A DNA stretch of 11,595 nucleotides from a virus (taxonomy: Duplodnaviria > Heunggongvirae > Uroviricota > Caudoviricetes). The notes beneath the pieces were generated by a model. It was not told where the DNA came from. It worked only from the letters and a program-made list of their open reading frames with translations, and searched no databases. The DNA lies in IMG/VR virus record IMGVR_UViG_2698536392_000001, positions 1 through 11,595 of that record, one strand, 5' to 3'. Position 1 is the first letter of the stretch. Each line of letters opens with the position of its first letter. Shown piece by piece: positions 1 to 11,595 of the stretch. The position numbers were made by a program, and so were the translations under genes.

Positions 1-1822
1 CACTGCAATCGCGATGCGGATCGCTGCCATCGTTCTCCTTGTGCGGATGTTCAGCACCTTCCATTTCCTCCAGACCTTTTTCCTGATATTCATTCTGATT
101 TTCTTCATTAAAGGTTTTCTGATACGTTGCGTCGCCCATCACCGCGCCGCAGTCAGGACAGTTGCCGCCGCCAGCCTGACCGCAGGCGATGCAAACTTTC
201 TCCGTTTCCTGTTGTTGCACTACTGGCTCAGGCTGTTCCGTTTCTGGCTCGTTTTGTTGCGTATTTGGGTCGTTCTGTTCCGCTTTCTGGTCGTTATGTT
301 CCGTTTCTGGCTGATTCTGGTACACAGAGTCGCGGGTCTGGATCCCCTTAACCCATTTCGGATCATTCGGGTCGCTAATCCCTTCAACAAATTCTCCGCG
401 AGAGGCAGCCAGTAATTTGTCTGCATCGACAGGATTTTTGGGCGGAATGTTTTTCCGGGCTTCATGGAGTTCTGCCCGCAGTTTCTGATATTTCGCATCA
501 ACAGAATTTACCTGTGACTGAGCATCCAGCGACTGCGTGTCCTGATGATGTTCAGTTGCATCCGGTTCCACTGTTTCAGCCGTTGCCTGTTCATCTGCCA
601 TTGCGCAAGATGGTTGCAGTTTTTCTTCATCATCCTGTTTTTCTTCTTCTTCTGTTACACGCTGCGGCATCGGGGCAGAGGAACGACCGCAGGCAATATC
701 CACGATTTCCGGATCAGGGTTGGCATGATCAGTTTCAGTCAGTACTTTGTTCAGATATTCAGTGACGTGTGCGGGGGTAACCTCGATCCCAATTGGTGCT
801 TCTTTTACGGACGCAACCACGATGGCGCGGGAATAATCCAGCCCGCCAGGCATGGTGATGAATTTGTCGCGGAAAACAGAAAAGGGCGGTTTATTTTCAG
901 CGATAATTTCCTCGACACGTTTAGCGTGTGCCGGATGAAGGTTATAAATGTCCACGTCCATTGAACGAGCCAGTACGCCAGTGGCTACGTCGCGCGCCAG
1001 TGACGTCAGATCGTGAACGAAACCTTCGCCGCGATCGGTGAGGTTCCCGCCGCCAGCATTAGCGCCGGAAGCCGTGCGCGTGATGCGTGAAACACGATTT
1101 CCTTTCATCCACTCTTTTGTCAGCAGACCACGATCGGTGTAGTCTGCGTCCAGGTATGCTTCGAAAAAAGCAGTCATCAGCCCCAGGCTTGAATTGCCTG
1201 GATTAGGGAAAACTCTGTCAGTATCACGCACCAGTTTGTGGAGATCGCGAATTTCCAGCGGGTCGAGCAGGCTGGTTTTGTGGGAAACAGCCAGGGCAGT
1301 AACAGCTGGTAGTTCTTCAGCTCGTGCAATGTGTAATGCCTGGAGTTCGTCGCGTGAAACGTGCGTCACCGGTTTTTCGCTGCCGTGTTGAGCAAGCCAG
1401 CGAATGGGCAGCTCCTGACCGGAAATCGGGAGTAGCATATTCTCCTCAATCTCCGTCATGTCTTCGCCATTAACATTGGTATTGTCAGTGCTGGCTGGTT
1501 TGTCCTGCGCAGAGGATGAGGGCGCGATAAATACCATTGTGATGCCATCTTCCCCGCCTTTTTCGTAACGGTTGCAGAATTCCGTATCAAATACGCCTTC
1601 TGGCGGGAGGTCATCAACAACGGGCAAATTGACGCGAACAGGTTTTTTGAAGTCATCTTCATCGTAGCCAGCATCATCAATCGCAACAGCACCACGGGAG
1701 ATGGCAATGGATAATTTTTTCGCTTCAGCCCAGTAAAAACCGCCTTTAATACCGAGACGTTTTCTGACTTTGTCATTTTTTGCTTCGTAATACAGTGGGT
1801 AAACTTGTTTATCGGTGCTCAT
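1..1822 (-). CDS. recE: Exodeoxyribonuclease VIII (RecE), N-terminal ~607 codons; gene continues beyond the window start
   Basis: Uninterrupted minus-strand frame from ATG at 1822-1820 to the window edge; absent from the ORF track only because it has no stop inside the window. Translation starts [15 protein letters not shown] and includes [45 protein letters not shown], an acidic Q/E/P-rich repeat linker and a CxxC-x7-CxxC motif. This matches my recollection of the non-catalytic N-terminal part of Rac RecE; the nuclease domain would lie outside the window. Confidence 0.8.
233..316. repeat. Four tandem ~21-bp degenerate repeats inside recE (encode heptad-like acidic Q/E/P-rich linker)
   Basis: Plus strand reads ctgttccgtttctggctcgtt / ttgttgcgtatttgggtcgtt / ctgttccgctttctggtcgtt / atgttccgtttctggctgatt at 233-253, 254-274, 275-295 and 296-316. 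Confidence 0.75.
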
Positions 1823-1929
1823 TGTTTTTTAACCTCAACTCAGATTAAAATTCGTTTGTTCAGTGAATAATCTTGCCGGATACACACTGTTCATAGCCTG
1901 TGCCATACGCAGGCTATTTCTTTCAGATT

Positions 1930-2199
1930 TCACCTTTTAATTTCATTGCAATAAGAGTTGCCAGAAATTCGGCTTTTTTTTCTGCGGGCAGATTCTTTCC
2001 GATATGCACCAGGCACATTTTTTTTGACGCCTTCGTTAAGTGTTTTAACGTTGCCTGATGGACCGTCGATATCAACCACAGTGAAAGGGGTTTCTTTATT
2101 TTCTGTTTTAATCACGTAGCCAATACGCTTTCCTTCCAGGCTGACTTCGTGAACAATGTCATCAGTAGTAACAACAGTGGCTTCATAACTGGTAATCAT
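1930..2199 (-). CDS. racC: RacC-like protein; C-terminal 31 codons apparently out of frame after an A8 homopolymer (possible pseudogene or sequencing error)
   Basis: Likely start is ATG at 2199 (MITSYEATVVTTDDIVHEV...) with AGGAG 6 nt upstream; the 105-aa track ORF starting at 2247 is probably an N-terminal over-extension. After the A8 run (plus-strand T8 at 2028-2035) the current frame gives a basic low-complexity tail NVPGAYRKESARRKKSRISGNSYCNEIKR, while the -1 frame gives MCLVHIGKNLPAEKKAEFLATLIAMKLKGEI ending at a stop at 1923-1925. Confidence 0.65.
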   Translation of the reverse strand: MITSYEATVVTTDDIVHEVSLEGKRIGYVIKTENKETPFTVVDIDGPSGNVKTLNEGVKKNVPGAYRKESARRKKSRISGNSYCNEIKR

Positions 2200-2273
2200 G
2201 TTTTTCTCCTTAATTAAGGTTGAGCGAATCCCTGCCATTGCTGGCATAAATTCAGTTTCGGATAGTCAGTTAA

Positions 2274-2444
2274 TTAAAGTTCGTGTGCCATCTGGTCTTT
2301 TTCGGCACAGATTTCACTACAATATTTTTTCATTTCCGTCGTTGGTATAACTCCACGCATGAAATGAAGTGGTCTTGTAATGATTTTGCTTTCTTCAATT
2401 TCTTTATTGCAAAGGTGATAAGCACATTTTATTTTCTTAGTCAT
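2274..2444 (-). CDS. ydaE: YdaE-like small zinc-binding protein (56 aa)
   Basis: Minus-strand ORF below the 60-aa track cut-off: [56 protein letters not shown]. It has C-x4-C ... C-x3-C cysteines, its start overlaps the kilR-like stop (TAATG), and its size and position match Rac ydaE. Confidence 0.65.
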   Translation of the reverse strand: MTKKIKCAYHLCNKEIEESKIITRPLHFMRGVIPTTEMKKYCSEICAEKDQMAHEL

Positions 2445-2665
2445 TACCATGACTCCGCCTTTACAGGTAAACCATCACGACCGAGGAAGACTCTAATCAT
2501 GCAGTCAGAAATGCATGTTTTTGTAGTCAGGCTACGAATATAAAGTTTTCGCTTTTTAATATTGTTTGCCGAGGCGATATATGTCCGACCTTCATGAAGA
2601 ACATAATCGCCAGGGGTCACACACTGACGTGGTATTTCATCAGTTCCGAAGTGATGAGCAATCAT
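2444..2665 (-). CDS. kilR: KilR-like cell-division inhibitor (73 aa)
   Basis: Track ORF 2444..2677 begins MEIIMIAHH; the internal ATG at 2665 has GGAG 6 nt upstream and gives a 73-aa product [73 protein letters not shown]. Position between ydaE and the immunity region matches Rac kilR. Confidence 0.7.
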
Positions 2666-3073
2666 AATTATCTCCATTTTTACAAATGAATTTTGTCGAT
2701 GCGGTGCCTGGTGCCTCCAGGTGACGTTAACCAGTTAACAATTAACGCCGGATAATCCACCCATAACACTGATGCTTTTAACTGTGCCGCGTGCGCTTAG
2801 CCGCATTCACCGCATCACAAAATTCACTTTAAAAAGGGGCGGCAGGGCAGCTACGGAGTAGAACTGATGCCGCCAAAGACTAGACACAGCAATGTCGTTA
2901 TTTACAACCGGAGGCGCACTCCCACCATTTAAATTTAACAGACAAGACCGACTCTTTATGGATACCGGAAATGCGCCTTCGTGTTGTGCCCGGTTTTATT
3001 TCACCACCTCCGGGCTTTGGTGGCCTCGGCTATACCCCTACAGCAAGAATATTGAATTAATCCAATAAATGGT

Positions 3074-3226
3074 TTAGCTGGTATTTTTGGCAAGCCAGCG
3101 ACGTGCGCCAGCTTCGGTTTTAAACGATTTGCTTTTGGTATACGTCATGGCGGTGAATGTGCCGTCCTGATTGGGAAACACGCCACATACCAGAGATTCG
3201 TTGTTGCCAAGATCGATAGTATCCAT
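3074..3226 (-). CDS. Small Rac-type early protein (50 aa; YdaF/YdaG-like position)
   Basis: Internal ATG at 3226 with GAGG 5 nt upstream gives MDTIDLGNNESLVCGVFPNQDGTFTAMTYTKSKSFKTEAGARRWLAKNTS; the longer 71-aa track ORF lacks a good ribosome-binding site. It lies just downstream of a strong leftward promoter. Confidence 0.5.
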   Translation of the reverse strand: MDTIDLGNNESLVCGVFPNQDGTFTAMTYTKSKSFKTEAGARRWLAKNTS

Positions 3227-3406
3227 GTTGACCTCATTTCCCCTTAACGCCGGGTGGCGGAACGTTTTATCTACTGCGCTTTGTATCAATCAACAACTGC
3301 CGTCATGTTCGTATGCCTCAGGCTGGCTACTTAGCCCTGTTCAGTGGCTGGATAACTCGAGGTATTGTCCTGCCGTTCTCTGGTGGGGCGTTGTTTGGAT
3401 ATGCTT

Positions 3407-3448
3407 ATTAAACACAATACGTTTTCTTATGTCAACACGAAATGTGTT
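3407..3448 (-). promoter_or_regulatory. Leftward early promoter (PL-like) with overlapping operator-like inverted repeat AACAC-N5-GTGTT
   Basis: On the minus strand: TTGACA (plus 3435-3430), a 17-bp spacer, then TTTAAT (plus 3412-3407). The inverted repeat AACACgaaatGTGTT at 3434-3448 overlaps the -35 and has the same architecture as the site at 4009-4023. Confidence 0.55.
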
Positions 3449-3477
3449 TTGTGGTGGATGTCATATGATGATGGTAC

Positions 3478-3501
3478 AAAAAAGCCCGCTGATAGCGGGC
3501 T
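3478..3501 (-). terminator. Rho-independent terminator downstream of the repressor gene
   Basis: Minus strand reads AGCCCGC-uauca-GCGGGCU followed by UUUUUU (plus-strand A run 3478-3483); it sits 30 bp past the repressor stop. Confidence 0.7.
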
Positions 3502-3531
3502 GATTGGCATATTACTGTGATAGCAAGATCA

Positions 3532-3951
3532 TTACTCCGGTGGGGGATTATCTTTAAGCCTGCCTCTCAAATATTTTTCTACATACTCATCGATTTCTTT
3601 TAGCCGGACTTCAAATAGCTCAATCATTCGTTGTTGTTCTGAGCCCGGTAGCTGGTTAAACAACTCAAGAAGTTTTCGTTGGGATTCATTTAACCACAAT
3701 TCAGAAGATTCCTGTTCTCCAAATAGGAGCTCAGGAGGAGATATGCCAAGTGCCTTTCCCAATACGACAGCGTCATGCACTCCAACATTTCTGCTGCCCG
3801 CCTCATAGTTACCTATACGCGATTGCGTCCATCCGCAGATTTCAGCAAGTTTTCCTTGAGATAAACCAAGCTTCTGCCTGCGCTCTTTAAGACGCATTGC
3901 AATTTTGTCATTGAGCCTACTAGCGGCAATTTTTTCGTTTTCTTTTTCCAT
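3532..3951 (-). CDS. Prophage immunity repressor, XRE-family HTH, no S24 peptidase domain (RacR-like position)
   Basis: 139 aa; HTH segment LGLSQGKLAEICGWTQSRIGNYEAG; divergently oriented to the Cro-like gene; AAGGA ribosome-binding site. Short length and absence of an Ala-Gly/Ser-Lys autocleavage module suggest a non-LexA-like repressor. Confidence 0.75.
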   Translation of the reverse strand: MEKENEKIAASRLNDKIAMRLKERRQKLGLSQGKLAEICGWTQSRIGNYEAGSRNVGVHDAVVLGKALGISPPELLFGEQESSELWLNESQRKLLELFNQLPGSEQQRMIELFEVRLKEIDEYVEKYLRGRLKDNPPPE

Positions 3952-4047
3952 TGCATCCTTGTATCACGAATCGTGATTTACATAAAACACAAAACAGCTT
4001 GACCATATAACACAAGGTGTGTTTAAAATTGTCATCGGAGGTTTTCA
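3952..4047. promoter_or_regulatory. Divergent promoter/operator region of the immunity switch
   Basis: Perfect 15-bp palindrome ATCACGAaTCGTGAT at 3963-3977, 12 bp from the repressor start codon. Inverted repeat AACACaaggtGTGTT at 4009-4023 lies between a rightward -35 TTGACC (3999-4004) and -10-like TTTAAA/TAAAAT (4022-4029). GGAGG precedes the Cro-like ATG by 7 nt. Confidence 0.6.
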
Positions 4048-4290
4048 ATGAACAAAATTTCAACATATCGAAAACAGCTTGGGCTGTCTCAAAGACAACT
4101 TGCTGTTCAGTTAGGGTGGATACAAAGCCGACTGGCAAATTACGAAGCAAATTTTCGTACCCCTGGACTAGAGGAGTGCAGAAAAATTGTTTCTACCCTT
4201 AATCGGCTTGGCGCTCGTTGTGGACTTGACGATGTATTCCCCCCAGACGGTAAGCATAGCGAAAACAGCATAGGAGCGGTTGATTCATGA
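4048..4290 (+). CDS. Cro-like XRE-family HTH protein (YdaS-like position, 80 aa)
   Basis: HTH segment LGLSQRQLAVQLGWIQSRLANYEA; first gene of the rightward operon; its stop overlaps the next start (ATGA). Confidence 0.75.
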   Translation: MNKISTYRKQLGLSQRQLAVQLGWIQSRLANYEANFRTPGLEECRKIVSTLNRLGARCGLDDVFPPDGKHSENSIGAVDS

Positions 4291-4709
4291 AAATCAGGCA
4301 TGAGCATATCGAATCAGTGTTGTTAGCCCTGGCTGTTGAAAAAGGGCAGGCATGGGTAGCCAATGCCATTACTGAAGAATATCTGCGCCAGGGGGGCGGC
4401 GAATTGCCCCTTGTACCAGGCAAGGACTGGAACAATCAGCAGAATATCTATCACCGTTGGTTGAAAGGTGAAACGAAAGCGCAAAGGGAAAAAATTCAGA
4501 AACTGATCCCTGCGGTTCTGGCAATTCTTCCGCGCGAGCTGCGTCACCGACTCTGCATCTTCGATACCCTGGAACGCCGTGCATTACTGGCGGCGCAGGA
4601 AGCGTTGAGTACGGCAATTGATGCGCATGATGAGGCAGTCCAGGCCGTTTACCGGAAAGCACATTTCAGCGGTGGTGGGTCGCCCGGCGATTCTGTCGTA
4701 GTGCATTGA
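4287..4709 (+). CDS. ydaT: YdaT-like protein (140 aa; CII-position regulator reported toxic when derepressed in Rac)
   Basis: 140 aa, the same length as Rac YdaT as I recall it; translationally coupled to the Cro-like gene; position between cro-like and the replication genes. Confidence 0.6.
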   Translation: MKIRHEHIESVLLALAVEKGQAWVANAITEEYLRQGGGELPLVPGKDWNNQQNIYHRWLKGETKAQREKIQKLIPAVLAILPRELRHRLCIFDTLERRALLAAQEALSTAIDAHDEAVQAVYRKAHFSGGGSPGDSVVVH

Positions 4710-4754
4710 TTGAAATTAATCGTGCCGGATTGTTTTGTTCGGTATCAGTTAAAT

Positions 4755-4773
4755 GTAACGCTGCGAGCGTTAC
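4755..4773. repeat. Perfect inverted repeat GTAACGC-N5-GCGTTAC upstream of the replication initiator gene (iteron/operator-like)
   Basis: gtaacgc-tgcga-gcgttac at 4755-4773, 14 bp upstream of the O-like start; the same motif recurs inside the gene. Confidence 0.7.
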
Positions 4774-4786
4774 AAGGTGAAAACAA

Positions 4787-5575
4787 ATGGCTTCAAACTG
4801 GATAAAGCTCGAGGTTATTACGCCGGATAAGCCGGAAATATTCAGGCTTGCTGAGATTCTGAATATTGATCCAGATGCCGCATTAGGGAAGGTTATTCGC
4901 TTCTGGGCATGGGCGGATCAACAAATGATAGACGGTAATGCAAATTGTAACGCTCGCGGCGTTACAAAAAGTGCAATAGATCGCATCACTTTTATGGCTG
5001 GTTTTGCTGATGCGTTAATTCAGGTTGGATGGCTGGTCGAAAATGACGTTGGGCTTTCTCTACCTAACTTTGAACGTCATAACGGAAAAAGCTCTAAAAA
5101 ACGGGCGGTTACAAACGAGCGAGTTACAAAAATACGCGAACTGAAACGAAAAGGTAACGCTGCCATCGTTACACAAACGGATCAAAAAGCGTTACCAGAG
5201 GAAGAGGAAGAGGAAGATATAAATACTGATCTCCCCCTAAATCCCCCTCGCCAAAAACGAGCGTCTAAAAAATTCGAGCCGGAGGCTATTGAGCTGCCCG
5301 ATTGGTTGCCGGAAACACTCTGGCATGAGTGGGTCCGGTTCAGACAGGCATTGCGAAAACCGATTCGAACGGAGCAGGGCGCTAACGGGGCGATACGGGA
5401 ACTGGAAAAATTCCGCCAGCAGGGTTTTACACCTGAGCAGGTGATTCGACACAGCATCGCCAATGAATACCAGGGCCTGTTCGCGCCGAAAGGTGTTCGG
5501 CCTGAGACGTTGCTCCGACAGGTTAACACCGTCTCGTTGCCGGACAGTGCGATCCCGCCAGGCTTCAGGGGGTAA
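4787..5575 (+). CDS. Phage replication initiator / replisome organiser (O-like; YdaU-like position)
   Basis: 262 aa; immediately upstream of the DnaC-like gene; contains the iteron cluster in the region encoding a basic then poly-Glu linker (KRAVTNERVTKIRELKRKGN ... EEEEEED); AAGGTGA ribosome-binding site. Confidence 0.6.
   Translation: MASNWIKLEVITPDKPEIFRLAEILNIDPDAALGKVIRFWAWADQQMIDGNANCNARGVTKSAIDRITFMAGFADALIQVGWLVENDVGLSLPNFERHNGKSSKKRAVTNERVTKIRELKRKGNAAIVTQTDQKALPEEEEEEDINTDLPLNPPRQKRASKKFEPEAIELPDWLPETLWHEWVRFRQALRKPIRTEQGANGAIRELEKFRQQGFTPEQVIRHSIANEYQGLFAPKGVRPETLLRQVNTVSLPDSAIPPGFRG
4947..5195. repeat. Intragenic iteron cluster (putative replication origin) within the O-like gene
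   Basis: GTAACGC-tcgcg-GCGTTAC at 4947-4965; direct GTTACAAA half-sites at 5108-5115 and 5123-5130; GTAACGC-tgcca-tCGTTAC at 5154-5172; GCGTTAC at 5189-5195. These are followed by a (GAG GAA)n purine tract at 5198-5218 and an A/T-rich patch, resembling the iterons plus AT-rich region of lambda ori inside gene O. Confidence 0.6.
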
Positions 5576-5581
5576 CGGACC

Positions 5582-6328
5582 ATGAAAAATATTGCGACAG
5601 GCGGCGTTCTGGAACGCATCCGCCGACTGACCCCGCCACATGTAACCGCCCCATTCAGAACGGTAGCGGAGTGGCGCGAGTGGCAACTTGCTGAAGGCCA
5701 GAAACGTAGCGAGGAGATTAACCGCCTGAATCGCCAGTTGCGGGTGGAAAAAATTCTGAATCGTTCAGGCATCCAGCCGTTGCACCGTAAATGCTCGTTT
5801 GCGAATTACCAGGTGCAGAACGACGGCCAGCGATACGCGTTAAGCCAGGCGAAATCCATCGCCGATGAACTGATGACCGGGTGTACAAATTTTGCGTTCA
5901 GCGGAAAACCTGGTACCGGGAAGAATCACTTAGCGGCATCTATCGGGAATCGCCTGCTGAAAGACGGTCAGACAGTGATTGTGGTTACCGTGGCTGATGT
6001 TATGAGCGCCCTGCACGCCAGCTATGACGACGGGCAGTCAGGCGAAAAATTTTTGCGGGAGCTGTGCGAAGTGGATCTGCTGGTTCTTGATGAAATTGGC
6101 ATTCAGCGCGAGACGAAAAACGAGCAGGTGGTGCTGCATCAGATTGTTGATCGCCGGACAGCGTCGATGCGCAGCGTGGGGATGCTGACAAACCTGAACT
6201 ATGAGGCCATGAAAACATTGCTCGGCGAGCGGATTATGGATCGCATGACCATGAACGGCGGGCGATGGGTGAATTTTAACTGGGAGAGCTGGCGTCCGAA
6301 TGTTGGTCAGCCAGGAATTGCGAAGTAA
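5582..6328 (+). CDS. ydaV: DnaC/IstB-like AAA+ helicase loader (YdaV-like)
   Basis: 248 aa; Walker [19 protein letters not shown] and Walker [10 protein letters not shown]; follows the initiator gene with a 6-bp gap. Confidence 0.85.
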
Positions 6329-6350
6329 TTTTTACCGGGAGGAAATTTTA

Positions 6351-7094
6351 ATGGAGACTGTTTTTGACGCACTGAAAGCAATGGGAAAAGCCACATCCAT
6401 AGAACTTGCTGCGCGACTTGATATCAGTCGTGAAGAAGTGCTGAACGAACTATGGGAACTGAAAAAGGCTGGTTTTGTTGATAAAAGCGCGTACACCTGG
6501 CGTGTGGCTGATAACAACGTTCAGCAGGAACAGCCAGCGCAGGCAGAACTGCCGGAAGAAACCACCACAGCAACAGTAGCGAAAATCTCAGAGTGCGATT
6601 TAACCGCAACGATTGAACAACGCGGACCACAAACGGCTGATGAGCTGGCTACATTGTTTGGTACCACATCACGCAAAGTGGCTTCAACGCTGGCAATGGC
6701 AATCAGCAAAGGTCGTCTGATTCGCGTAAATCAGGGCGGTAAATTTCGTTACTGCATACCGGGCGATAATTTACCAGCAGAGCCGAAAGCAGCATCGGTA
6801 GCGGAAACTGATGGTAAGGCCTTTCCTCATCCCGCAGGTGTTGCATTACCAGTACAGGAGGCTGCAACACAGGAAGATATTAAAACAGAAACGGTGGCGG
6901 ACATTGTGCAGTCGCTTGAGAAGCGAGTGGATAATCTGGTTCTGCCATCGCTGCGACAGGCAAACCGCGAACTGCGTCGGGCGAAAAGTGATATCCGGAA
7001 ATGGGAGCGAGTCTGTGCCGCGCTGCGGGAGCTGAATAAATATCGCGATATTGTCGCCCAGCTTTGCCGGGAGGAAACCAGTGAGCAACATTAA
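6351..7094 (+). CDS. Hypothetical protein with two winged-helix-like segments and a C-terminal coiled coil
   Basis: Start taken at ATG 6351 (GGGAGG 8 nt upstream) rather than the track start at 6300, which overlaps the ydaV-like gene. Segments [30 protein letters not shown] and [34 protein letters not shown] look like HTH/wHTH motifs; the C-terminus is heptad-rich. Possibly the DUF1627 family (recollection only). Confidence 0.55.
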
Positions 7095-7635
7095 TTACCA
7101 GGCACTGCGAATGGCGGCAGAAAATGCAACCCCTGGCGAATGGTGTTCTGATGATTATGGGTTAATTGCTGATGCCGGACTGAACGCAAATTACTACATA
7201 GCATCATGCTCAGGACCAGATAATCGCGCCAATAAGCGATTCATAGCAGCAGCCAATCCGGCTACCGTGCTGGCACTGTTGGATGAACGGGAAGCCCAAA
7301 GCAAACGCATTGCAGAGCTGGAGACTAATCTTGCTGCGCTTGCGGCGGAGAATGCGGGGCTGAATAAATTTATCGTACAGAGTTGCTACGTGTTTGATGG
7401 CGAGCAGGATGAACTATCTGATGCGTATATCTGCGCAATAGACGGAAGGATGCCGCAAACCCCAGCCACCGACGCTTTCTTGTCGGATGTGCGGGCTGGG
7501 GCGTTTAACGACCTTTGCGCGGCGTTTGTCAGGCACGCAAAAGTTGCAGGACTGGATGATGCCGATACCGTAACGCTTAAGGAAGTGACAGAAGCATTGT
7601 TGCATTGTGCGGAACAGATTCGCGCGCCTGAATAA
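7081..7635 (+). CDS. Ead/Ea22-like family protein, paralog 1
   Basis: Start probably GTG 7081 (GGGAGG 6 nt upstream), giving [21 protein letters not shown]. Shares the N-terminal INYQALR motif and the central [18 protein letters not shown] core with the ORF at 8079, including an identical 17-nt stretch gccaatccggctaccgt. Confidence 0.6.
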
Positions 7636-7707
7636 TTAAATTTAGTGTTGTAAATAAAATTTAATCCTTAACCGGAAGGATTTCTGCACCCTCAGAACAG
7701 CAGGAGG

Positions 7708-7723
7708 CCACCCGAAAGGGTGG
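7708..7723 (+). promoter_or_regulatory. GC-rich hairpin with GNRA tetraloop (CCACCC-GAAA-GGGTGG) between a Shine-Dalgarno-like AGGAGG and the start codon of the acidic ORF
   Basis: Perfect 6-bp stem with GAAA loop, seen directly. AGGAGG at 7702-7707 is 23 nt from ATG 7731 unless the hairpin shortens the effective spacing; alternatively GGTGG in the 3' arm serves as the ribosome-binding site. Confidence 0.45.
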
Positions 7724-7730
7724 TAGTGAA

Positions 7731-7913
7731 ATGCGAAAGTTCAAAATAATTATTGAAACGGGAATAGCTGGTGGAGATTTTGAGGATGTATTCGAAGTGG
7801 ACGATGACGCAACACCTGATGAAATTCATGACGAAGCAAAAGAAATTTTCTTTAACTACTGCAATTACTCATATCACGAAATAAAAGACGAAGAGGAAGA
7901 ACAAAATGGCTGA
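7731..7913 (+). CDS. Small highly acidic protein (60 aa), function unknown
   Basis: MRKFKIIIETGIAGGDFEDVFEVDDDATPDEIHDEAKEIFFNYCNYSYHEIKDEEEEQNG has about 20 of 60 residues D/E. Preceded by an AT-rich leader and hairpins; its 3' end overlaps the next ORF. Confidence 0.5.
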   Translation: MRKFKIIIETGIAGGDFEDVFEVDDDATPDEIHDEAKEIFFNYCNYSYHEIKDEEEEQNG

Positions 7914-8082
7914 TTTTGGTTCAACTAAATATAACGTCAGTTATGAAGAATGGCATGAATTGTTAATGGACTATGCAGAGTTACGCGGTGGAAGTGCTGC
8001 TGATGCTGAAGCCTGGCGTGATGACTATGAAGCAGGAAAAACTCCGGTCGAAGCATATTGTGATGAGTGGGGCGATGAATGA
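7906..8082 (+). CDS. Small acidic protein (58 aa), function unknown; not in the ORF track (below 60 aa)
   Basis: ATG 7906 with AGGAAG about 8 nt upstream, overlapping the previous stop: MADFGSTKYNVSYEEWHELLMDYAELRGGSAADAEAWRDDYEAGKTPVEAYCDEWGDE. Its stop overlaps the start of the next gene (ATGA-type coupling). Confidence 0.5.
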   Translation: MADFGSTKYNVSYEEWHELLMDYAELRGGSAADAEAWRDDYEAGKTPVEAYCDEWGDE

Positions 8083-8669
8083 GCGAAATTAATTATCAGG
8101 CGCTACGTGAAAAGGCAGAGAAAGCAACTAAAGGAAGCTACATCGTAGGGCATACATCTGTTAACCAGCACGGCAATTTAACAGGAGTTTTTGTTTGTCA
8201 AAAATGGAAAGGAGAACCCGGTGGCGTGATTGCCGAATGTCACGTTAACTGCCTGGTTGAAACAGATGCTCAGGCTTATGCAAACGCAGAATTCATCGCC
8301 GCAGCCAATCCGGCTACCGTCTTGGCGCTGCTGGATGAACGGGAAAGAAACCAGCAATACATCAAAAGCCGTGATCAGGAGAACGAGGATATTGCGCTAA
8401 CGGTAGGGAAACTGCGTGTTGAGCTTGAGGAAGCAAAATCAAAACTCAACGAGCAACGCGAGTATTACGAGGGAGTAATCGCGGATGGAAGTAAGCGCAT
8501 AGCAGAACTGTCTGCTAGCCACAGCAAATTGCGCGACACAATGGCTGGCATCCACAACACAATCCGAATGGATGGCGGCTATACGCCACTGGCAGCAATC
8601 CTTAACGCTGCTAAACGCGCATATGAAGAATCAGCAAGCGCCGCTGGCATCAAGGAGGAGTCTGAGTGA
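8079..8669 (+). CDS. Ead/Ea22-like family protein, paralog 2 (C-terminal coiled coil)
   Basis: MSEINYQALREKAEKATKGS ... [19 protein letters not shown]; C-terminal heptad-rich segment LTVGKLRVELEEAKSKLNEQREYYE. Confidence 0.6.
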   Translation: MSEINYQALREKAEKATKGSYIVGHTSVNQHGNLTGVFVCQKWKGEPGGVIAECHVNCLVETDAQAYANAEFIAAANPATVLALLDERERNQQYIKSRDQENEDIALTVGKLRVELEEAKSKLNEQREYYEGVIADGSKRIAELSASHSKLRDTMAGIHNTIRMDGGYTPLAAILNAAKRAYEESASAAGIKEESE

Positions 8670-9160
8670 TGGTCATTTCACCTATAACGCTGAAAGCGGC
8701 GCAGGAATTTATCGCACAGCACCACCGACACAATAAACCACCAGTGGGGCATAAATTCAGCATTGGTCTGAGAAATAATGCCGGAGAATTGATAGGTGTG
8801 GCGACAGCTGGTCGACCTGTTGCACGACATTTGGACGATGGATTAACGCTTGAAGTAAATCGCACATGTACCACAGGAGAACGCAACGCTAACAGCGCGC
8901 TTTATGGTGCTGTCTGGCGGGCAGCAAAAGCTATGGGTTATCAACGTTGTATTACGTACACCCAGGCAGATGAATCAGGAGCATCTCTTCGCGCAGCTGG
9001 TTTTGTTCGTGTGAAAGAGCTTCCTCCAAGAAAAAGCTGGGCGGAATCAAGCGTCGCCCTGCGGAGTAAACGCGATCCGGTCGGAAACGGTGGTATTCCT
9101 CGTGTGCTCTGGGAAATCAGGAGAATGAGTACCGCTGGCATTCGCATCAAAGGAGAGTGA
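8669..9160 (+). CDS. Hypothetical protein, possibly a minimal GNAT-like acyltransferase fold (weak)
   Basis: ATG 8669 (or GTG 8666) after AAGGAGGAG. The C-terminal half GYQRCITYTQADESGASLRAAGFVRV resembles the GNAT motif-B pattern; the N-terminus has QHHRHNKPPVGH. I could not place it in a family with confidence. Confidence 0.4.
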   Translation: MVISPITLKAAQEFIAQHHRHNKPPVGHKFSIGLRNNAGELIGVATAGRPVARHLDDGLTLEVNRTCTTGERNANSALYGAVWRAAKAMGYQRCITYTQADESGASLRAAGFVRVKELPPRKSWAESSVALRSKRDPVGNGGIPRVLWEIRRMSTAGIRIKGE

Positions 9161-9161
9161 T

Positions 9162-9806
9162 ATGAGCGCTATAACCAAAGAACGTATCAAATTATTCATT
9201 AAAAATCCGCTTGATAACGGACTTACTCGTGGCGAACAAATGGAACTGGCACGAATTGCACTGGCATCACTGGAACGCGAACAGATTCGCCACGAGCATG
9301 CCAAATGGTCTGACTCCACATTTGGCTGCGTTGGCCCCATTGGTCCGCTGAAACATCTCTCAAAAGAGGCACTGGAAGCCGCAGCCGAACCAGACGATCT
9401 TGGCGAGTGGGCTGATATGCAGTTTCTGTTGTGGGATGCACAGCGCCGTGCTGGCATCAGCGATGCTGAAATTACCGCTGCTATGGAAGATAAATTGAAG
9501 ATCAACATGAAGCGCCAGTGGCCTGAACCAAAAGATGGTGAGCCTCGCTTGCACATTAAAGAACCCGGCAACTCTCCGGTAACTCCGGATGGTTGGATAA
9601 GCTGTAGTGATCGAATGCCTGAAAAGGGCCAGAACGTGCTTATTTCGGTGAATTTCGATAGCTCTCTGGTTGAACCGCTAATATGCTCTGCACGCTATAC
9701 CGGAAGCACATTCCGGCGAGGAGATGCAACGATTAAGCCGGGTAATGGTATTGAGCAGGCAACTCACTGGATGAAATTACCGGAACCGCCGCAGGAGGTG
9801 AGCTGA
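9162..9806 (+). CDS. MazG-like all-alpha NTP pyrophosphohydrolase domain (DUF550-like) fused to a C-terminal DUF551-like domain
   Basis: N-terminal LKHLSKEALEAAAEPDDLGEWADMQFLLWDAQRRAGISDAEITAAMEDKLKINMKRQW fits the MazG/HisE-type EExxE ... ExxD ... K.x.N.xR pattern. C-terminal WISCSDRMPEKGQNVLI ... ATHWMKLPEPP resembles the DUF551 signature (recollection). AGGAGA ribosome-binding site 6 nt upstream. Confidence 0.6.
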   Translation: MSAITKERIKLFIKNPLDNGLTRGEQMELARIALASLEREQIRHEHAKWSDSTFGCVGPIGPLKHLSKEALEAAAEPDDLGEWADMQFLLWDAQRRAGISDAEITAAMEDKLKINMKRQWPEPKDGEPRLHIKEPGNSPVTPDGWISCSDRMPEKGQNVLISVNFDSSLVEPLICSARYTGSTFRRGDATIKPGNGIEQATHWMKLPEPPQEVS

Positions 9807-10201
9807 TGGAAAATGAAGGCGATAATATCATCACACTGGTGCAGCCAAAGCGCGATGAAGAGAAGCTGCTGAACATTACAGTAACTGGCAGAAAAAACTA
9901 CACACAACAGAGCTGTAAGCATCGGGCCATTGAGGTTCATGAACAGGATCGCGTTATCCTGTGCTTGCAGTGCGGATGTGTTGTGGACCCTTTTCAGTAT
10001 GTTCTGCGGTGTGCGAACGATGGTGAGGCTGTGGTGAGAGAGATTAGACAGCTTCATAACAGACGCGATCAGCTCCGCGAATCTGTTGCCAGCCTCGAGC
10101 GTGAAGAAAAGAACACCAAAGCACGGTTGCGGGCAGCAAGAACTGCAATACTGTATGCGGAAAATGACCTTAAAAATATTGAGCAGAAGGTGAATCAATG
10201 A
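9806..10201 (+). CDS. Hypothetical protein with a Cys/His zinc-ribbon-like motif and C-terminal coiled coil
   Basis: SCKHRAIEVHEQDRVILCLQCGCVVDP, then a heptad-rich helix REIRQLHNRRDQLRESVASLEREEKNTKARLRAARTAILYAENDLKNIEQK. AGGAGG 7 nt upstream; start overlaps the previous stop. Confidence 0.55.
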   Translation: MENEGDNIITLVQPKRDEEKLLNITVTGRKNYTQQSCKHRAIEVHEQDRVILCLQCGCVVDPFQYVLRCANDGEAVVREIRQLHNRRDQLRESVASLEREEKNTKARLRAARTAILYAENDLKNIEQKVNQ

Positions 10202-10275
10202 CCTGGCCTGAAGCATTCACAACGGTAGGAATCGCGGTGGCGCTGGTGGTGTATTCGATTTGCCGCTGGGGATAA
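10198..10275 (+). CDS. Putative 25-aa single-pass hydrophobic peptide, translationally coupled to the upstream ORF
   Basis: ATGA overlap with the upstream stop; MTWPEAFTTVGIAVALVVYSICRWG has an 11-residue hydrophobic core; AAGGTGA 4-5 nt upstream. Below the ORF-track size cut-off. Confidence 0.35.
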   Translation: MTWPEAFTTVGIAVALVVYSICRWG

Positions 10276-10282
10276 AAACGGT

Positions 10283-10310
10283 TTGCGGGAAAAGGAGAGT
10301 TAAGTAGAAT
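10283..10310 (+). promoter_or_regulatory. Candidate promoter of the hok mRNA
   Basis: TTGCGG (10283-10288), 16-bp spacer, TAGAAT (10305-10310). The predicted 5' end near 10318-10321 starts GCTTGAGGCTATCTGCCTCAGG, which resembles the hok mRNA 5' element of plasmid R1 as I recall it. Confidence 0.45.
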
Positions 10311-10369
10311 TGCAGCGGGTGCTTGAGGCTATCTGCCTCAGGCATGATCACCAAAAGGCAGATAGAGAA

Positions 10370-10437
10370 AAGCCCCAGTTAACATTACGCGTCCTGCAAG
10401 ACGCTTAACATTAATCTGAGGCCATATCTATGCGACA
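10370..10437 (-). ncRNA. Candidate Sok-like antisense RNA (approximate extent)
   Basis: Minus-strand promoter: -35 TTGACC (plus 10472-10467), 18-bp spacer, -10 TAATCT (plus 10448-10443). The predicted start near 10436 gives a transcript antisense to the mok-like start region. I could not define the 3' end or terminator by eye. Confidence 0.3.
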
Positions 10438-10489
10438 CATAGAGATTAGCCTCTTACGGACCGAAAGGTCAAGGAGAAGCAGGCTATGA
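10430..10489 (+). CDS. mok-like upstream ORF (19 codons) whose stop overlaps the hok start codon
   Basis: ATG 10430 with GAGG 8 nt upstream; its UGA stop overlaps the hok AUG (cuAUGAag), a geometry consistent with coupled translation as in hok/mok systems. Confidence 0.45.
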   Translation: MRHIEISLLRTERSRRSRL

Positions 10490-10641
10490 AGCAGCAAAAG
10501 GCGATGTTAATCGCCCTGATCGTCATCTGTTTAACCGTCATAGTGACGGCACTGGTAACGAGGAAAGACCTCTGCGAGGTACGAATCCGAACCGGCCAGA
10601 CGGAGGTCGCTGTCTTCACAGCTTACGAATCTGAGGAGTAA
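10486..10641 (+). CDS. hokD: Hok/Gef-family type I toxin (51 aa), closest to HokD/RelF in my recollection
   Basis: MKQQKAMLIALIVICLTVIVTALVTRKDLCEVRIRTGQTEVAVFTAYESEE: N-terminal transmembrane helix plus the conserved C-terminal Hok motif. AAGGAG ribosome-binding site 9 nt upstream. Below the ORF-track cut-off. Confidence 0.85.
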   Translation: MKQQKAMLIALIVICLTVIVTALVTRKDLCEVRIRTGQTEVAVFTAYESEE

Positions 10642-10709
10642 GAGACCAGGCGGGGGAGAAATCCCTCGCCACCTCTCATGTGTCAGGCATCCTCAACGCA
10701 CCCGCACTA

Positions 10710-10732
10710 AACCCGCTTCGGCGGGTTTTTTG
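10710..10732 (+). terminator. Rho-independent terminator of the hok transcript
   Basis: AACCCGC-ttcg-GCGGGTT followed by TTTTTT, about 70 nt after the hok stop. Gives a transcript of roughly 415 nt from the candidate promoter. Confidence 0.8.
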
Positions 10733-10877
10733 TTGCGCGCTGAATGCGCAGGGTGAAAAATAACCATATATTTGATTATATACACAACAAAAAATAAAAG
10801 TCATTGCACCTGCACATTAAACAATCAAATATACGACGTGAAATAAATATTTTTCAGATTAATATTTTTGTCTCTAT

Positions 10878-11129
10878 GTGAATATAACCGTTTGTACTTA
10901 TAAACCTGGAGGCATCGTGGAAAAAATAAAAAAACTATTTAGTAGCAAATACGCAGTCATACGTCGTGATGACCTGTCAGTTATAGTCGAAATGGATTAC
11001 TTCCCTGAAACCCCAAAATCAATGATGTATCGTAATGGTCGAAAGGCAATTTTTTTACCGATGAGGGTAAGTGACATTATGGGAAATGATAAACTGCTGG
11101 ATGAATTGCGAGTCAGAGCATCCTGTTAG
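10878..11129 (+). CDS. Rem-like small protein (83-aa ORF; in-frame GTG at 10917 after GGAGG is an alternative start)
   Basis: The 83-aa length and the position downstream of hokD and upstream of a ydfU-like gene match the hokD-rem-ydfU order of the Qin prophage as I recall it. Preceded by a roughly 170-bp AT-rich region. Confidence 0.45.
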   Translation: MNITVCTYKPGGIVEKIKKLFSSKYAVIRRDDLSVIVEMDYFPETPKSMMYRNGRKAIFLPMRVSDIMGNDKLLDELRVRASC

Positions 11130-11200
11130 TATTGGCATTAATTCTGTTATACTACATAACGGGCTGAACACCCATTCTACTGCGCCAGCGGAGAACTACG

Positions 11201-11595
11201 ATGGCGCATATACAACTGGTCAAACAAACCTCTTCCGGATTACTTCTCCCGGCGACGCCGGAGAGTTGCGATTTTTTGCATCAAATCAAAATAGGTGAGT
11301 GGATACACGCGGACTTTAAGCGAGTGCGTAACTACGCGTTCCACAAGCGTTTTTTCAAACTCCTGCAACTGGGATTCGATTACTGGACTCCGGTCGGTGG
11401 GGCGATCACGCCTCGCGAACGAAAACTGGTATCAGGCTTCGTTGATTACCTGTGCGAATCAGTAGGTCGGGAACACACTCCAGCCCTGAGTGATGCCGCA
11501 GAGCAATACCTTAATACAGTTGCGACATGCAGAACCCGGGATACGGCATTGCTAAAGTCGTTTGACGCTTTCCGCGAGTGGGTAACCATTCAGGC
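11201..11595 (+). CDS. Hypothetical phage protein (YdfU-like position), 5' part only; runs off the window end
   Basis: ATG 11201 with GGAG 8 nt upstream; open frame to the window end: MAHIQLVKQTSSGLLLPATPESCDFLHQIKIGEWIHADFKRVRNYAFHKRFFKLLQLGFDYWTPVGGAITPRERKLVSGFVDYLCESVGREHTPALSDAAEQYLNTVATCRTRDTALLKSFDAFREWVTIQ. Confidence 0.5.
   Translation, partial: MAHIQLVKQTSSGLLLPATPESCDFLHQIKIGEWIHADFKRVRNYAFHKRFFKLLQLGFDYWTPVGGAITPRERKLVSGFVDYLCESVGREHTPALSDAAEQYLNTVATCRTRDTALLKSFDAFREWVTIQ

Follow-up and report, generated by a model that had tools for sequence, protein, structure and literature searches.

A candidate replication origin built from GTAACGC half-sites and a polypurine tract within a prophage initiator gene

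Replication origins located inside initiator genes are already known, and a specialist would expect one in a locus of the kind described here; the initiators of iteron plasmids, as dimers, are autorepressors that act at inverted repeats. In ori-lambda, the set of repeats lies in the middle of gene O (PMC7466680). The Rac prophage of Escherichia coli K-12 has been reported to carry an origin, oriJ (PMC3945230), and the C-terminal domain of DnaT forms filaments on single-stranded DNA (ssDNA) that mark the helicase-loading site (PMC13377028). Here, we analyzed a stretch of 11,595 nucleotides from a member of the Caudoviricetes (IMG/VR record IMGVR_UViG_2698536392_000001, positions 1 to 11,595; hereafter, the window), in which copies of the 7-bp half-site GTAACGC lie upstream of and inside a putative replication initiator gene (4787-5575). 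On comparative sequence evidence, we consider it probable that these are recognition sites of the initiator encoded by the same gene and that, together with an adjoining polypurine tract, they form the replication origin of the prophage.

Palindromes were located by direct reading of the sequence and by pattern search, and chance was judged by 200 shuffles. Reading and search bore out an initial sequence-only reading, which had described perfect inverted repeats at 4755-4773 and 4947-4965 and a copy with one mismatch at 5154-5172. The elements considered below are as follows:

4755-4773: site 0, the upstream palindrome GTAACGCTGCGAGCGTTAC (GTAACGC, spacer TGCGA, GCGTTAC), perfect, in the intergenic region between the ydaT-like and initiator genes.
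4935-4941, plus strand: degenerate direct half-site GTAATGC (one mismatch), 12 bp 5' of the left arm of site A.
4947-4965: site A, palindrome GTAACGCTCGCGGCGTTAC (GTAACGC, spacer TCGCG, GCGTTAC), perfect, coding for C-N-A-R-G-V-T in a loop of the N-terminal domain.
5105-5112: half-site-like GCGGTTAC with a 1-nt insertion, containing the pentamer GTTAC at 5108-5112.
5121-5127, minus strand: weak half-site GAGTTAC (one mismatch), containing the pentamer GTTAC at 5123-5127.
5143-5149, plus strand: outer-left half-site of the site B core, GAAACGA, degenerate (two mismatches).
5154-5172: site B, palindrome GTAACGCTGCCATCGTTAC (GTAACGC, spacer TGCCA, TCGTTAC), one mismatch in the right arm; the inner two half-sites of the core.
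5189-5196, minus strand: outer-right half-site GCGTTACC (exact GCGTTAC at 5189-5195, then C), directly 5' of the purine tract.
5197-5217, plus strand: polypurine tract AGAGGAAGAGGAAGAGGAAGA, 21 nt, a candidate unwinding or helicase-loading element.
5217-5225: A/T patch ATATAAATA, 9 bases.

By chance, 0.01 palindrome matches would be expected per window, and none of the 200 shuffles yielded three or more. Counting both strands, the window has seven exact copies of the 7-mer GCGTTAC against an expectation of 1.13, with six of them inside 4755-5195. The three 19-bp dyad-symmetric sites are separated by 192 and 207 bp; contiguity exists at the half-site level only, in the > > < < core described below.

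This arrangement resembles ori-lambda (layout from PMC7466680) in several respects: the initiator gene itself houses the repeats, where the N-terminal domain gives way to the linker, with a strand-asymmetric tract downstream; the repeated sites are 19 bp long with dyad symmetry; and a helicase-loader gene follows immediately 3'. However, the N-terminal domain of the window protein is not Phage_rep_O (PF04492) and has no Pfam match, its recognition sequence is unrelated, and, in place of the 4-6 contiguous iterons of lambda, its sites form separate clusters at intervals of about 200 bp together with a core of four half-sites at 11-12-bp spacing. The neighbouring element is polypurine rather than an AT-rich region of roughly 40 bp, and the loader is DnaC-like, not lambda P. 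The description of the gene as "O-like" in the sequence-only reading thus holds for its position and its C-terminal half but not for its N-terminal domain. Taken with a near-invariant recognition sequence and a DnaT-like effector domain, the half-site core, the split auxiliary sites and the polypurine substitute for an AT-rich element would be the departures from the lambda model. A likeness to iteron-plasmid Rep systems (pSC101, F, P1, R6K, RK2 type) was also evident, in the form of inverted repeats accompanied by phased single sites and a possible dual role as origin and operator. The window initiator is nevertheless unrelated in sequence to Rep_3-type proteins and matches no such Pfam family, its sites are 7-bp half-sites and not 17-22-bp iterons, DnaA boxes are absent, and the origin would lie inside the coding sequence.

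Conservation was assessed in homologous loci encoding the same N-terminal domain, collected by tblastn and pattern-based searches (12 phage loci, 80 genome loci and 80 viral contigs) and reduced to 69 loci by removing sequences with at least 85% nucleotide identity; palindromes at homologous positions were counted with up to three mismatches. Conservation of the repeat positions in homologous prophages, proposed as a check in the sequence-only reading, was observed: sites A and B occupied the same two positions of the gene, approximately +149..161 (with site A at +149, +152 or +161) and +347..394, in 66 of the 69 non-redundant loci. The core TAACG/CGTTA was nearly invariant, with 34 and 49 distinct 5-base spacers at sites A and B, respectively. 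Across the 69 loci, exact half-sites had a density of 8.1/kb between -120 and +440 compared with 0.11/kb in the flanks, a 72-fold excess. Among the hosts were Enterobacterales, Pseudomonas, Burkholderiales, Xanthomonas/Xylella (phages) and Planctomycetota, the last represented by the complete Stieleria chromosome with two copies. Contigs binned as Verrucomicrobiota, Ignavibacteriae and Thermoanaerobaculia carry the sites as well, although the labels of such metagenome-assembled genomes need caution. Judged from these sequences, the sites are kept in phages of at least two confirmed bacterial phyla, and this conservation at the DNA level in and near an initiator gene suggests that the motifs are most likely initiator binding sites at a lambda-style origin. 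A 1,551-bp contig from a Streptomyces hayashii assembly contains a Pseudomonas-type copy of the gene with its sites, which is probably contamination and not an actinobacterial host.

The constant unit of the family consists of four half-sites in the order > > < <, with start-to-start distances of about 12, 12 and 11-12 bp, the last of which, GCGTTACC(T), directly abuts the purine tract in nearly all lineages. In the window, this core spans 5143-5196, and its outer-left half-site is degenerate; GTAACGC or GAAACGC stands in this place in relatives, 11-12 bp 5' of the palindrome. An 11-bp insertion, shared by the window with its Enterobacterales subfamily, shifts the last half-site by about one helical turn (23 bp start-to-start instead of 11-12). 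The right arm of site B is a perfect GCGTTAC in all five aligned close E. coli relatives, none of which has the T of the window (5166). Around site A, further '<' half-sites are often found 11 and 33 bp downstream. The degenerate copy at 4935-4941 is an intact GTAACGC in four of five aligned close relatives and sits in a 12-nt (four-codon) insertion with respect to other clades, which corresponds to a 12-bp duplication of the Enterobacterales subfamily; the half-site map around site A in that subfamily is '149> 161> 173<', with the intact half-site at the 4935-4941 position. The degenerate copies at 4935-4941 and 5143-5149 had escaped the sequence-only reading. Among the half-sites listed in it, 5189-5195 is exact and the most widely conserved single half-site of the family. 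The other two, 5108-5112 and 5123-5127, we rate as weak since they are GTTAC pentamers only and the second alternates between GTTAC and GTAAC among close E. coli relatives; an exact GCGTTAC is present at the same offset as 5121-5127 (+335) in several Enterobacterales loci.

A codon alignment indicated where selection acts. Third codon positions within the arms of site A were frozen (GGT 96%, AAC 98%, GTT 93%; entropy 0.12-0.38 bits), whereas other, equally conserved Gly and Val columns retained the same codon in 9-44% of cases (1.65-1.97 bits) and third positions just outside the arms were variable. Furthermore, site B is read as GGT-AAC-GCT (G-N-A-x-x-V-T) in the window and in another frame, GTA-ACG-CTG (V-T-L-A-A-L), in Klebsiella, Enterobacter, ZX5 and E. 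coli Uetakevirus-type phages and several other clades, and site 0 is non-coding. On this sequence evidence, the constraint acts on DNA and not on protein. The contrary idea, that the repeats arose by chance or follow from coding constraint (for an acidic linker and a G-N-A-x-x-V-T peptide that occurs more than once), might appeal to the fact that sites A and B both code for x-N-A-x-x-V-T in the window and that the purine tract codes for a Glu-rich linker. It is contradicted by the frozen synonymous positions of the arms, by the second frame of site B and the non-coding site 0, by a linker peptide that differs while purine content is kept and Arg is always encoded by AGA, and by the chance expectation of 0.01. 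Chance or a coding artefact was therefore rejected on the shuffles, the synonymous-site test, the two reading frames and the Arg codon usage, and we assign it a negligible probability.

Every palindrome is able to fold into a stem-loop (7-bp stem, 5-nt loop), and the predicted mRNA is folded at the upstream copy (z = -2.1). Both intragenic copies are terminator-like on the minus strand, and the A3C/T17G switch preserves complementarity. These features could be expected if the palindromes served as stem-loops in single strands, i.e., as RNA hairpins, weak antisense terminators or ssDNA signals for primosome assembly or priming. Nevertheless, changes in the arms were one-sided and uncompensated far more often than two-sided (29 vs 3 at site A and 49 vs 5 at site B, 78 vs 8 in total). 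The stem sequence itself, beyond its pairing, is nearly invariant across the sampled host clades, and unpaired half-sites are equally conserved at the 11-12-bp helical phasing and switch along with the palindromes. The tails after the stems hold only 4-5 T, and Rfam covariance models gave no match at E up to 1 in 4400-5700. Given the mostly one-sided arm changes and the conservation of unpaired half-sites, selection is unlikely to act on a hairpin; the hairpin or terminator explanation was largely rejected on these grounds and on the weak T tails, and its probability appears very small. The terminator-like calls on the minus strand, a stem with a short T-rich tail at 4945-4967 (site A region) and at 5154-5172 (site B), may represent weak antisense terminators or a coincidence of A-rich spacers.

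The sequence-only reading had also placed a purine repeat and an A/T-rich stretch after the intragenic cluster. The repeat is real, lies at 5197-5217 and is one of only two homopurine/homopyrimidine runs of at least 14 nt in the window. The A/T stretch, by contrast, proved to be a patch of 9 bases which, in a nearest-neighbour profile of 40-bp duplex stability, reached z = +1.5 and fell outside the 15 weakest 40-mers of the window. In 53 of the 69 lineages, the last half-site is succeeded by a run of purines, which in most clades takes the form (AGAGA)n and in Enterobacterales (GAGGAA)n; over 24 nt, purines make up 92% on average, and many lineages have a GATATA-like end. All 68 Arg codons within ten codons after the last half-site were AGA, a codon that serves 9 of 311 Arg residues in the N-terminal domain of these genes (Fisher 7e-44), and the linker peptide over the tract varies (EEEEEE vs REEKRRE) while purine content persists. 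By these comparisons, the tract is constrained at the DNA level; E. coli relatives have tracts that differ in length by 6 or 12 bp. Duplex stability over 40 bp is lowest at three intergenic, A/T-rich stretches of the window (7631-7670, 10759-10798 and 10846-10885; z 3.4-3.7), which are unrelated to the origin. GATC sequences at 5180-5183 and 5228-5231 bracket the last half-site and the purine tract, as they do in other Enterobacterales loci; five GATC occur in 4868-5231, where about one would be expected from the window average, and a Dam/SeqA control of the putative origin is possible.

The gene order of the window is that of a Rac-like prophage immunity and replication module:

3532-3951, minus strand: helix-turn-helix (HTH) repressor gene.
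4048-4290: cro/ydaS-like gene.
4287-4709: ydaT/cII-like gene.
4787-5575, plus strand: initiator gene, 262 aa, with an N-terminal domain (approximately aa 1-123), a linker (approximately 123-160) and a DnaT-like part (aa 170-262).
5582-6328, plus strand: DnaC-like helicase loader gene, 248 aa (NF009043, 507 bits; DnaC equivalog, E = 1e-90; phrog_50), the presumed partner of the initiator.

A match to phrog_2509, "replication initiation protein", was obtained for the 262-aa protein, which is labelled "hypothetical protein" in RefSeq. Its N-terminal half was assigned to no family in Pfam, NCBIfam or PDB sequence searches, and a Pfam search at E up to 1 gave zero matches for the window protein or for 11 diverse N-terminal domains of the family. 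The domain is matched by about 6,600 protein clusters at 50% identity; of 5,426 complete E. coli genomes, 786 encode it, and O157:H7 prophages and the Stx phage TL-2011b are among its carriers. An AlphaFold2 model had a mean predicted local distance difference test (pLDDT) score of 68, with blocks of 70-87 in the N-terminal domain, in which helices at 16-25, 29-48, 61-67 and 73-80, a beta-hairpin at 84-91 and a long basic helix at 102-123 were modelled; these are followed by a disordered acidic linker (residues 123-160, pLDDT <50) and a helical C-terminal domain. The modelled N-terminal domain would be winged-helix-like. Site A maps to the loop 49-60, and the site B core and the purine tract to the disordered linker, which in the model are places of the protein able to tolerate DNA-driven sequence.

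Residues 170-262 are homologous to the C-terminal ssDNA-binding domain of DnaT (2ru8_A, E = 9e-5; 9zbt_D, E = 3e-4), and relatives such as ZX5 match PF17948 at 1.6e-18. With E. coli DnaT, the last 93 residues share the terminal ...PDSxIPPGFRG, and both systems have an acidic linker and a dnaC-like gene next in order. The window protein, however, does not have the DnaT N-terminal domain (NF002770 equivalog, 15.8 bits vs a cutoff of 201), and it would be targeted by a sequence-specific domain and not by PriA/PriB at forks.

Modules equivalent to this C-terminal part occur with other N-terminal domains. The C-terminal half of the "gpO homolog" of Gifsy-2 is 40% identical to that of the window initiator, and its N-terminal domain is Phage_rep_O (PF04492, 1.5e-30), with approximately seven lambda-type iterons at 22-bp spacing. 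Including this protein type, the C-terminal module and its DnaC-like partner recur with two other N-terminal domains, each of which has its own intragenic repeats. Given this modular equivalence and the location of the lambda origin in gene O, the repeats of the window sit where a proven origin lies in a protein that is equivalent in other respects. The lambda-like origin put forward in the sequence-only reading is thus supported by comparative evidence, namely the conservation in 66 of 69 loci, the frozen synonymous sites, the two frames, the Gifsy-2 module and the joint half-site switches described below.

The second such arrangement is that of K-12 Rac, which shares with the window the order racR-like, ydaS-like, ydaT-like, initiator and ydaV-like, and in which the C-terminal part of YdaU and the DnaC-like YdaV are near-identical to those of the window. 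The N-terminal domain of YdaU, however, is DUF1376 (PF07120; 8.7e-26 in the K-12-type YdaU of phage vB_EcoS-683R6), for which the window protein gave no match, and its gene has no GTAACGC sites but TGTTCAAACA repeats in the corresponding part. Since both N-terminal domain and repeats differ, identity of the window element with the genetically defined oriJ was rejected; as read from the sequences, it is a different specificity cassette. In phage vB_EcoS-683R6, three direct copies and one inverted copy of TGTTCAAACA lie at 2613-2685, in the linker-coding part, and are candidate sites of oriJ. A C-rich motif, CCCCCC-TWA-CCCCCC-(AA)GGGG, found at 5232-5250 in the window (CTCCCCCTAAATCCCCCTC) and coding for P-P-L-x-P-P-(K/R)-G, recurs downstream of the purine tract in distant lineages; as it also begins the C-terminal module common to K-12-type YdaU, it marks an inter-cassette recombination boundary.

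Half-site sequence and initiator sequence were found to vary together. Half-sites of the form GTCACG/CGTGAC are present in five lineages (Vibrio phage 1.211.A and loci labelled Rhodospirillaceae, Paraburkholderia, Rhodanobacteraceae and Puniceicoccaceae), in which all half-sites are switched jointly and the purine tract is retained. The proteins of these lineages differ from the rest at N51, where the site A codon dictates the residue, and at T109 and V113, which lie one helical turn apart on the basic helix 102-123 and are suggested as specificity-setting residues. In the epsilon15/SPN1S clade, where the N-terminal domain is 27-32% identical, the half-sites are GTCCGC in the same > > < < order and spacing, the core directly precedes the same AGAGAAG tract, and a second cluster of half-sites lies near the 5' end of the gene. 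Such joint switches are what an initiator-site pair would show, although they may stem from few independent events.

Upstream of the gene, site 0 ends 1 nt 5' of the Shine-Dalgarno sequence AAGGTG (4774-4779), with the initiator ATG at 4787; its arms are invariant among close E. coli relatives, while the spacer varies (TGCGA/TTACA). The upstream palindrome was found in only 10 of the 69 lineages, those being Enterobacterales plus one Stenotrophomonas locus. Its distance to the start codon is 12-24 nt, and some lineages have extra half-sites there; copies are located 31-43 nt 5' of the start codon in Erwinia, Mixta, Serratia, Yersinia and Pantoea, and at -92 in Stenotrophomonas. The proximity to the Shine-Dalgarno sequence, the position held before the ATG in several Enterobacterales lineages, and the established self-repression by iteron-plasmid initiator dimers would fit sites that act as operators only, through which the initiator or another regulator controls transcription or translation of the replication genes, with the origin located elsewhere. 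Yet the universal sites (A and the B core) lie 150-400 bp inside the coding sequence, and no promoter-like site was predicted at or near any of the palindromes. The fixed junction between the half-site core and a DNA-constrained polypurine tract has no obvious regulatory rationale, and the equivalent Gifsy-2 cassettes bear bona fide lambda-type origin iterons. We therefore regard a purely regulatory function as unlikely. Operator and origin roles are not mutually exclusive, and the copy by the ribosome-binding site could well be regulatory: autoregulation through it, as the sequence-only reading had suggested, is plausible, but transcriptional autorepression found no support, as no promoter was predicted at the upstream palindrome.

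A different protein might also bind the sites, such as the YdaT/CII-like protein, a RacR-like repressor or a host factor, given that several DNA-binding proteins are encoded just upstream and that a YdaT-box-like repeat lies 32 bp 5' of site 0. YdaT recognises (A/T)TGATT-N6-AATCAA (PMC9986795, PMC11879457), a box unrelated to GTAACGC. Moreover, lineages that retain the sites have entirely different neighbouring genes (methylase, KilAC, Roi, with or without DnaC), and the N-terminal domain is the sole constant partner of the sites. No host factor with such specificity is known to be common to Planctomycetota and Enterobacterales, and there are no DnaA boxes. Another binder is accordingly most improbable. 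A YdaT/CII operator in particular was rejected, as the published box differs and such boxes occur elsewhere in the window: the inverted repeat TTGATTCATGAAAATCAG at 4280-4297, the spacer of which contains the ydaT start codon (4287) as in K-12 Rac, and TTGATTGAAATTAATCGT at 4706-4723, which overlaps the ydaT stop codon.

If the sites are indeed an origin recognised by the gene's own product, initiation could proceed as follows. The winged-helix-like N-terminal domain would bind the 7-bp GTAACGC, with dimers occupying the 19-bp palindromes and adjacent copies lining up along the core (5143-5196). Site A and, in the lineage of the window, site 0, about 200 bp apart, would serve as auxiliary sites that could be looped into one nucleoprotein complex similar to the lambda O-some. 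This complex would destabilise or mark the neighbouring polypurine/short-AT tract (5197-5225), where the DnaT-like C-terminal domain and the DnaC-like loader (5582-6328) would then place host DnaB. By analogy, the filament behaviour of DnaT suggests that the C-terminal domain may act next to the polypurine tract.

A more specific and distinctly tentative version of this scheme is an origin-specific primosome. In it, an unnamed winged-helix domain would read a 7-bp half-site that has stayed nearly unchanged across distant hosts because one copy lies in its own coding sequence (a self-encoded specificity lock), and the fused DnaT-like domain would polymerise on one strand of the polypurine/polypyrimidine element, marking it for DnaC-like/DnaB loading. 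If true, phage initiation would be a replication-restart mechanism without PriA/PriB, with a polypurine element replacing the AT-rich unwinding element.

Several points weigh against the sites being an initiator-recognised origin. The searchable literature holds no experimental evidence of binding or origin activity for any family member. The sites form three clusters about 200 bp apart and no tandem iteron array, no DnaA boxes were found in the window, and the nearest-neighbour stability profile revealed no convincing AT-rich unwinding element beside the sites. Slippage and the need for a charged linker could partly maintain the polypurine simple repeat, and the sites could serve regulation rather than initiation. 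The clade-level co-variation, for its part, may reflect few independent events, and co-inheritance of site and N-terminal domain is expected in any case, as site A lies inside the coding sequence of the domain and the two are physically inseparable.

No description of this origin was found in the literature on oriJ, ydaU, the motif, epsilon15 origins or intragenic prophage origins (searchable literature, with subscription-only reviews outside its scope). With the present data, a large initiator family unnamed in Pfam/NCBIfam gains a precise candidate origin, consisting of a half-site, a four-half-site core, a polypurine tract and auxiliary sites, and origin annotation in thousands of prophages would become feasible. 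An exchange of N-terminal domain and sites as one cassette would also explain the mosaic breakpoints. The recognition sequence is nearly unchanged over very distant hosts, in contrast to the fast divergence of iteron specificity among lambdoid phages, and a DNA-constrained polypurine tract, beside a DnaT-like ssDNA-binding domain, takes the place of the expected AT-rich unwinding element.

Finally, the early genes 3' of this region are, in order, those of a DUF1627 protein with an N-terminal HTH and a 29-nt overlap with the loader gene (6300-7094), two Ead/Ea22-like paralogues (7051-7635 and 8079-8669), a weak Mom-like match (8666-9160) and a dATP/dGTP pyrophosphohydrolase-DUF551 fusion (9162-9806).

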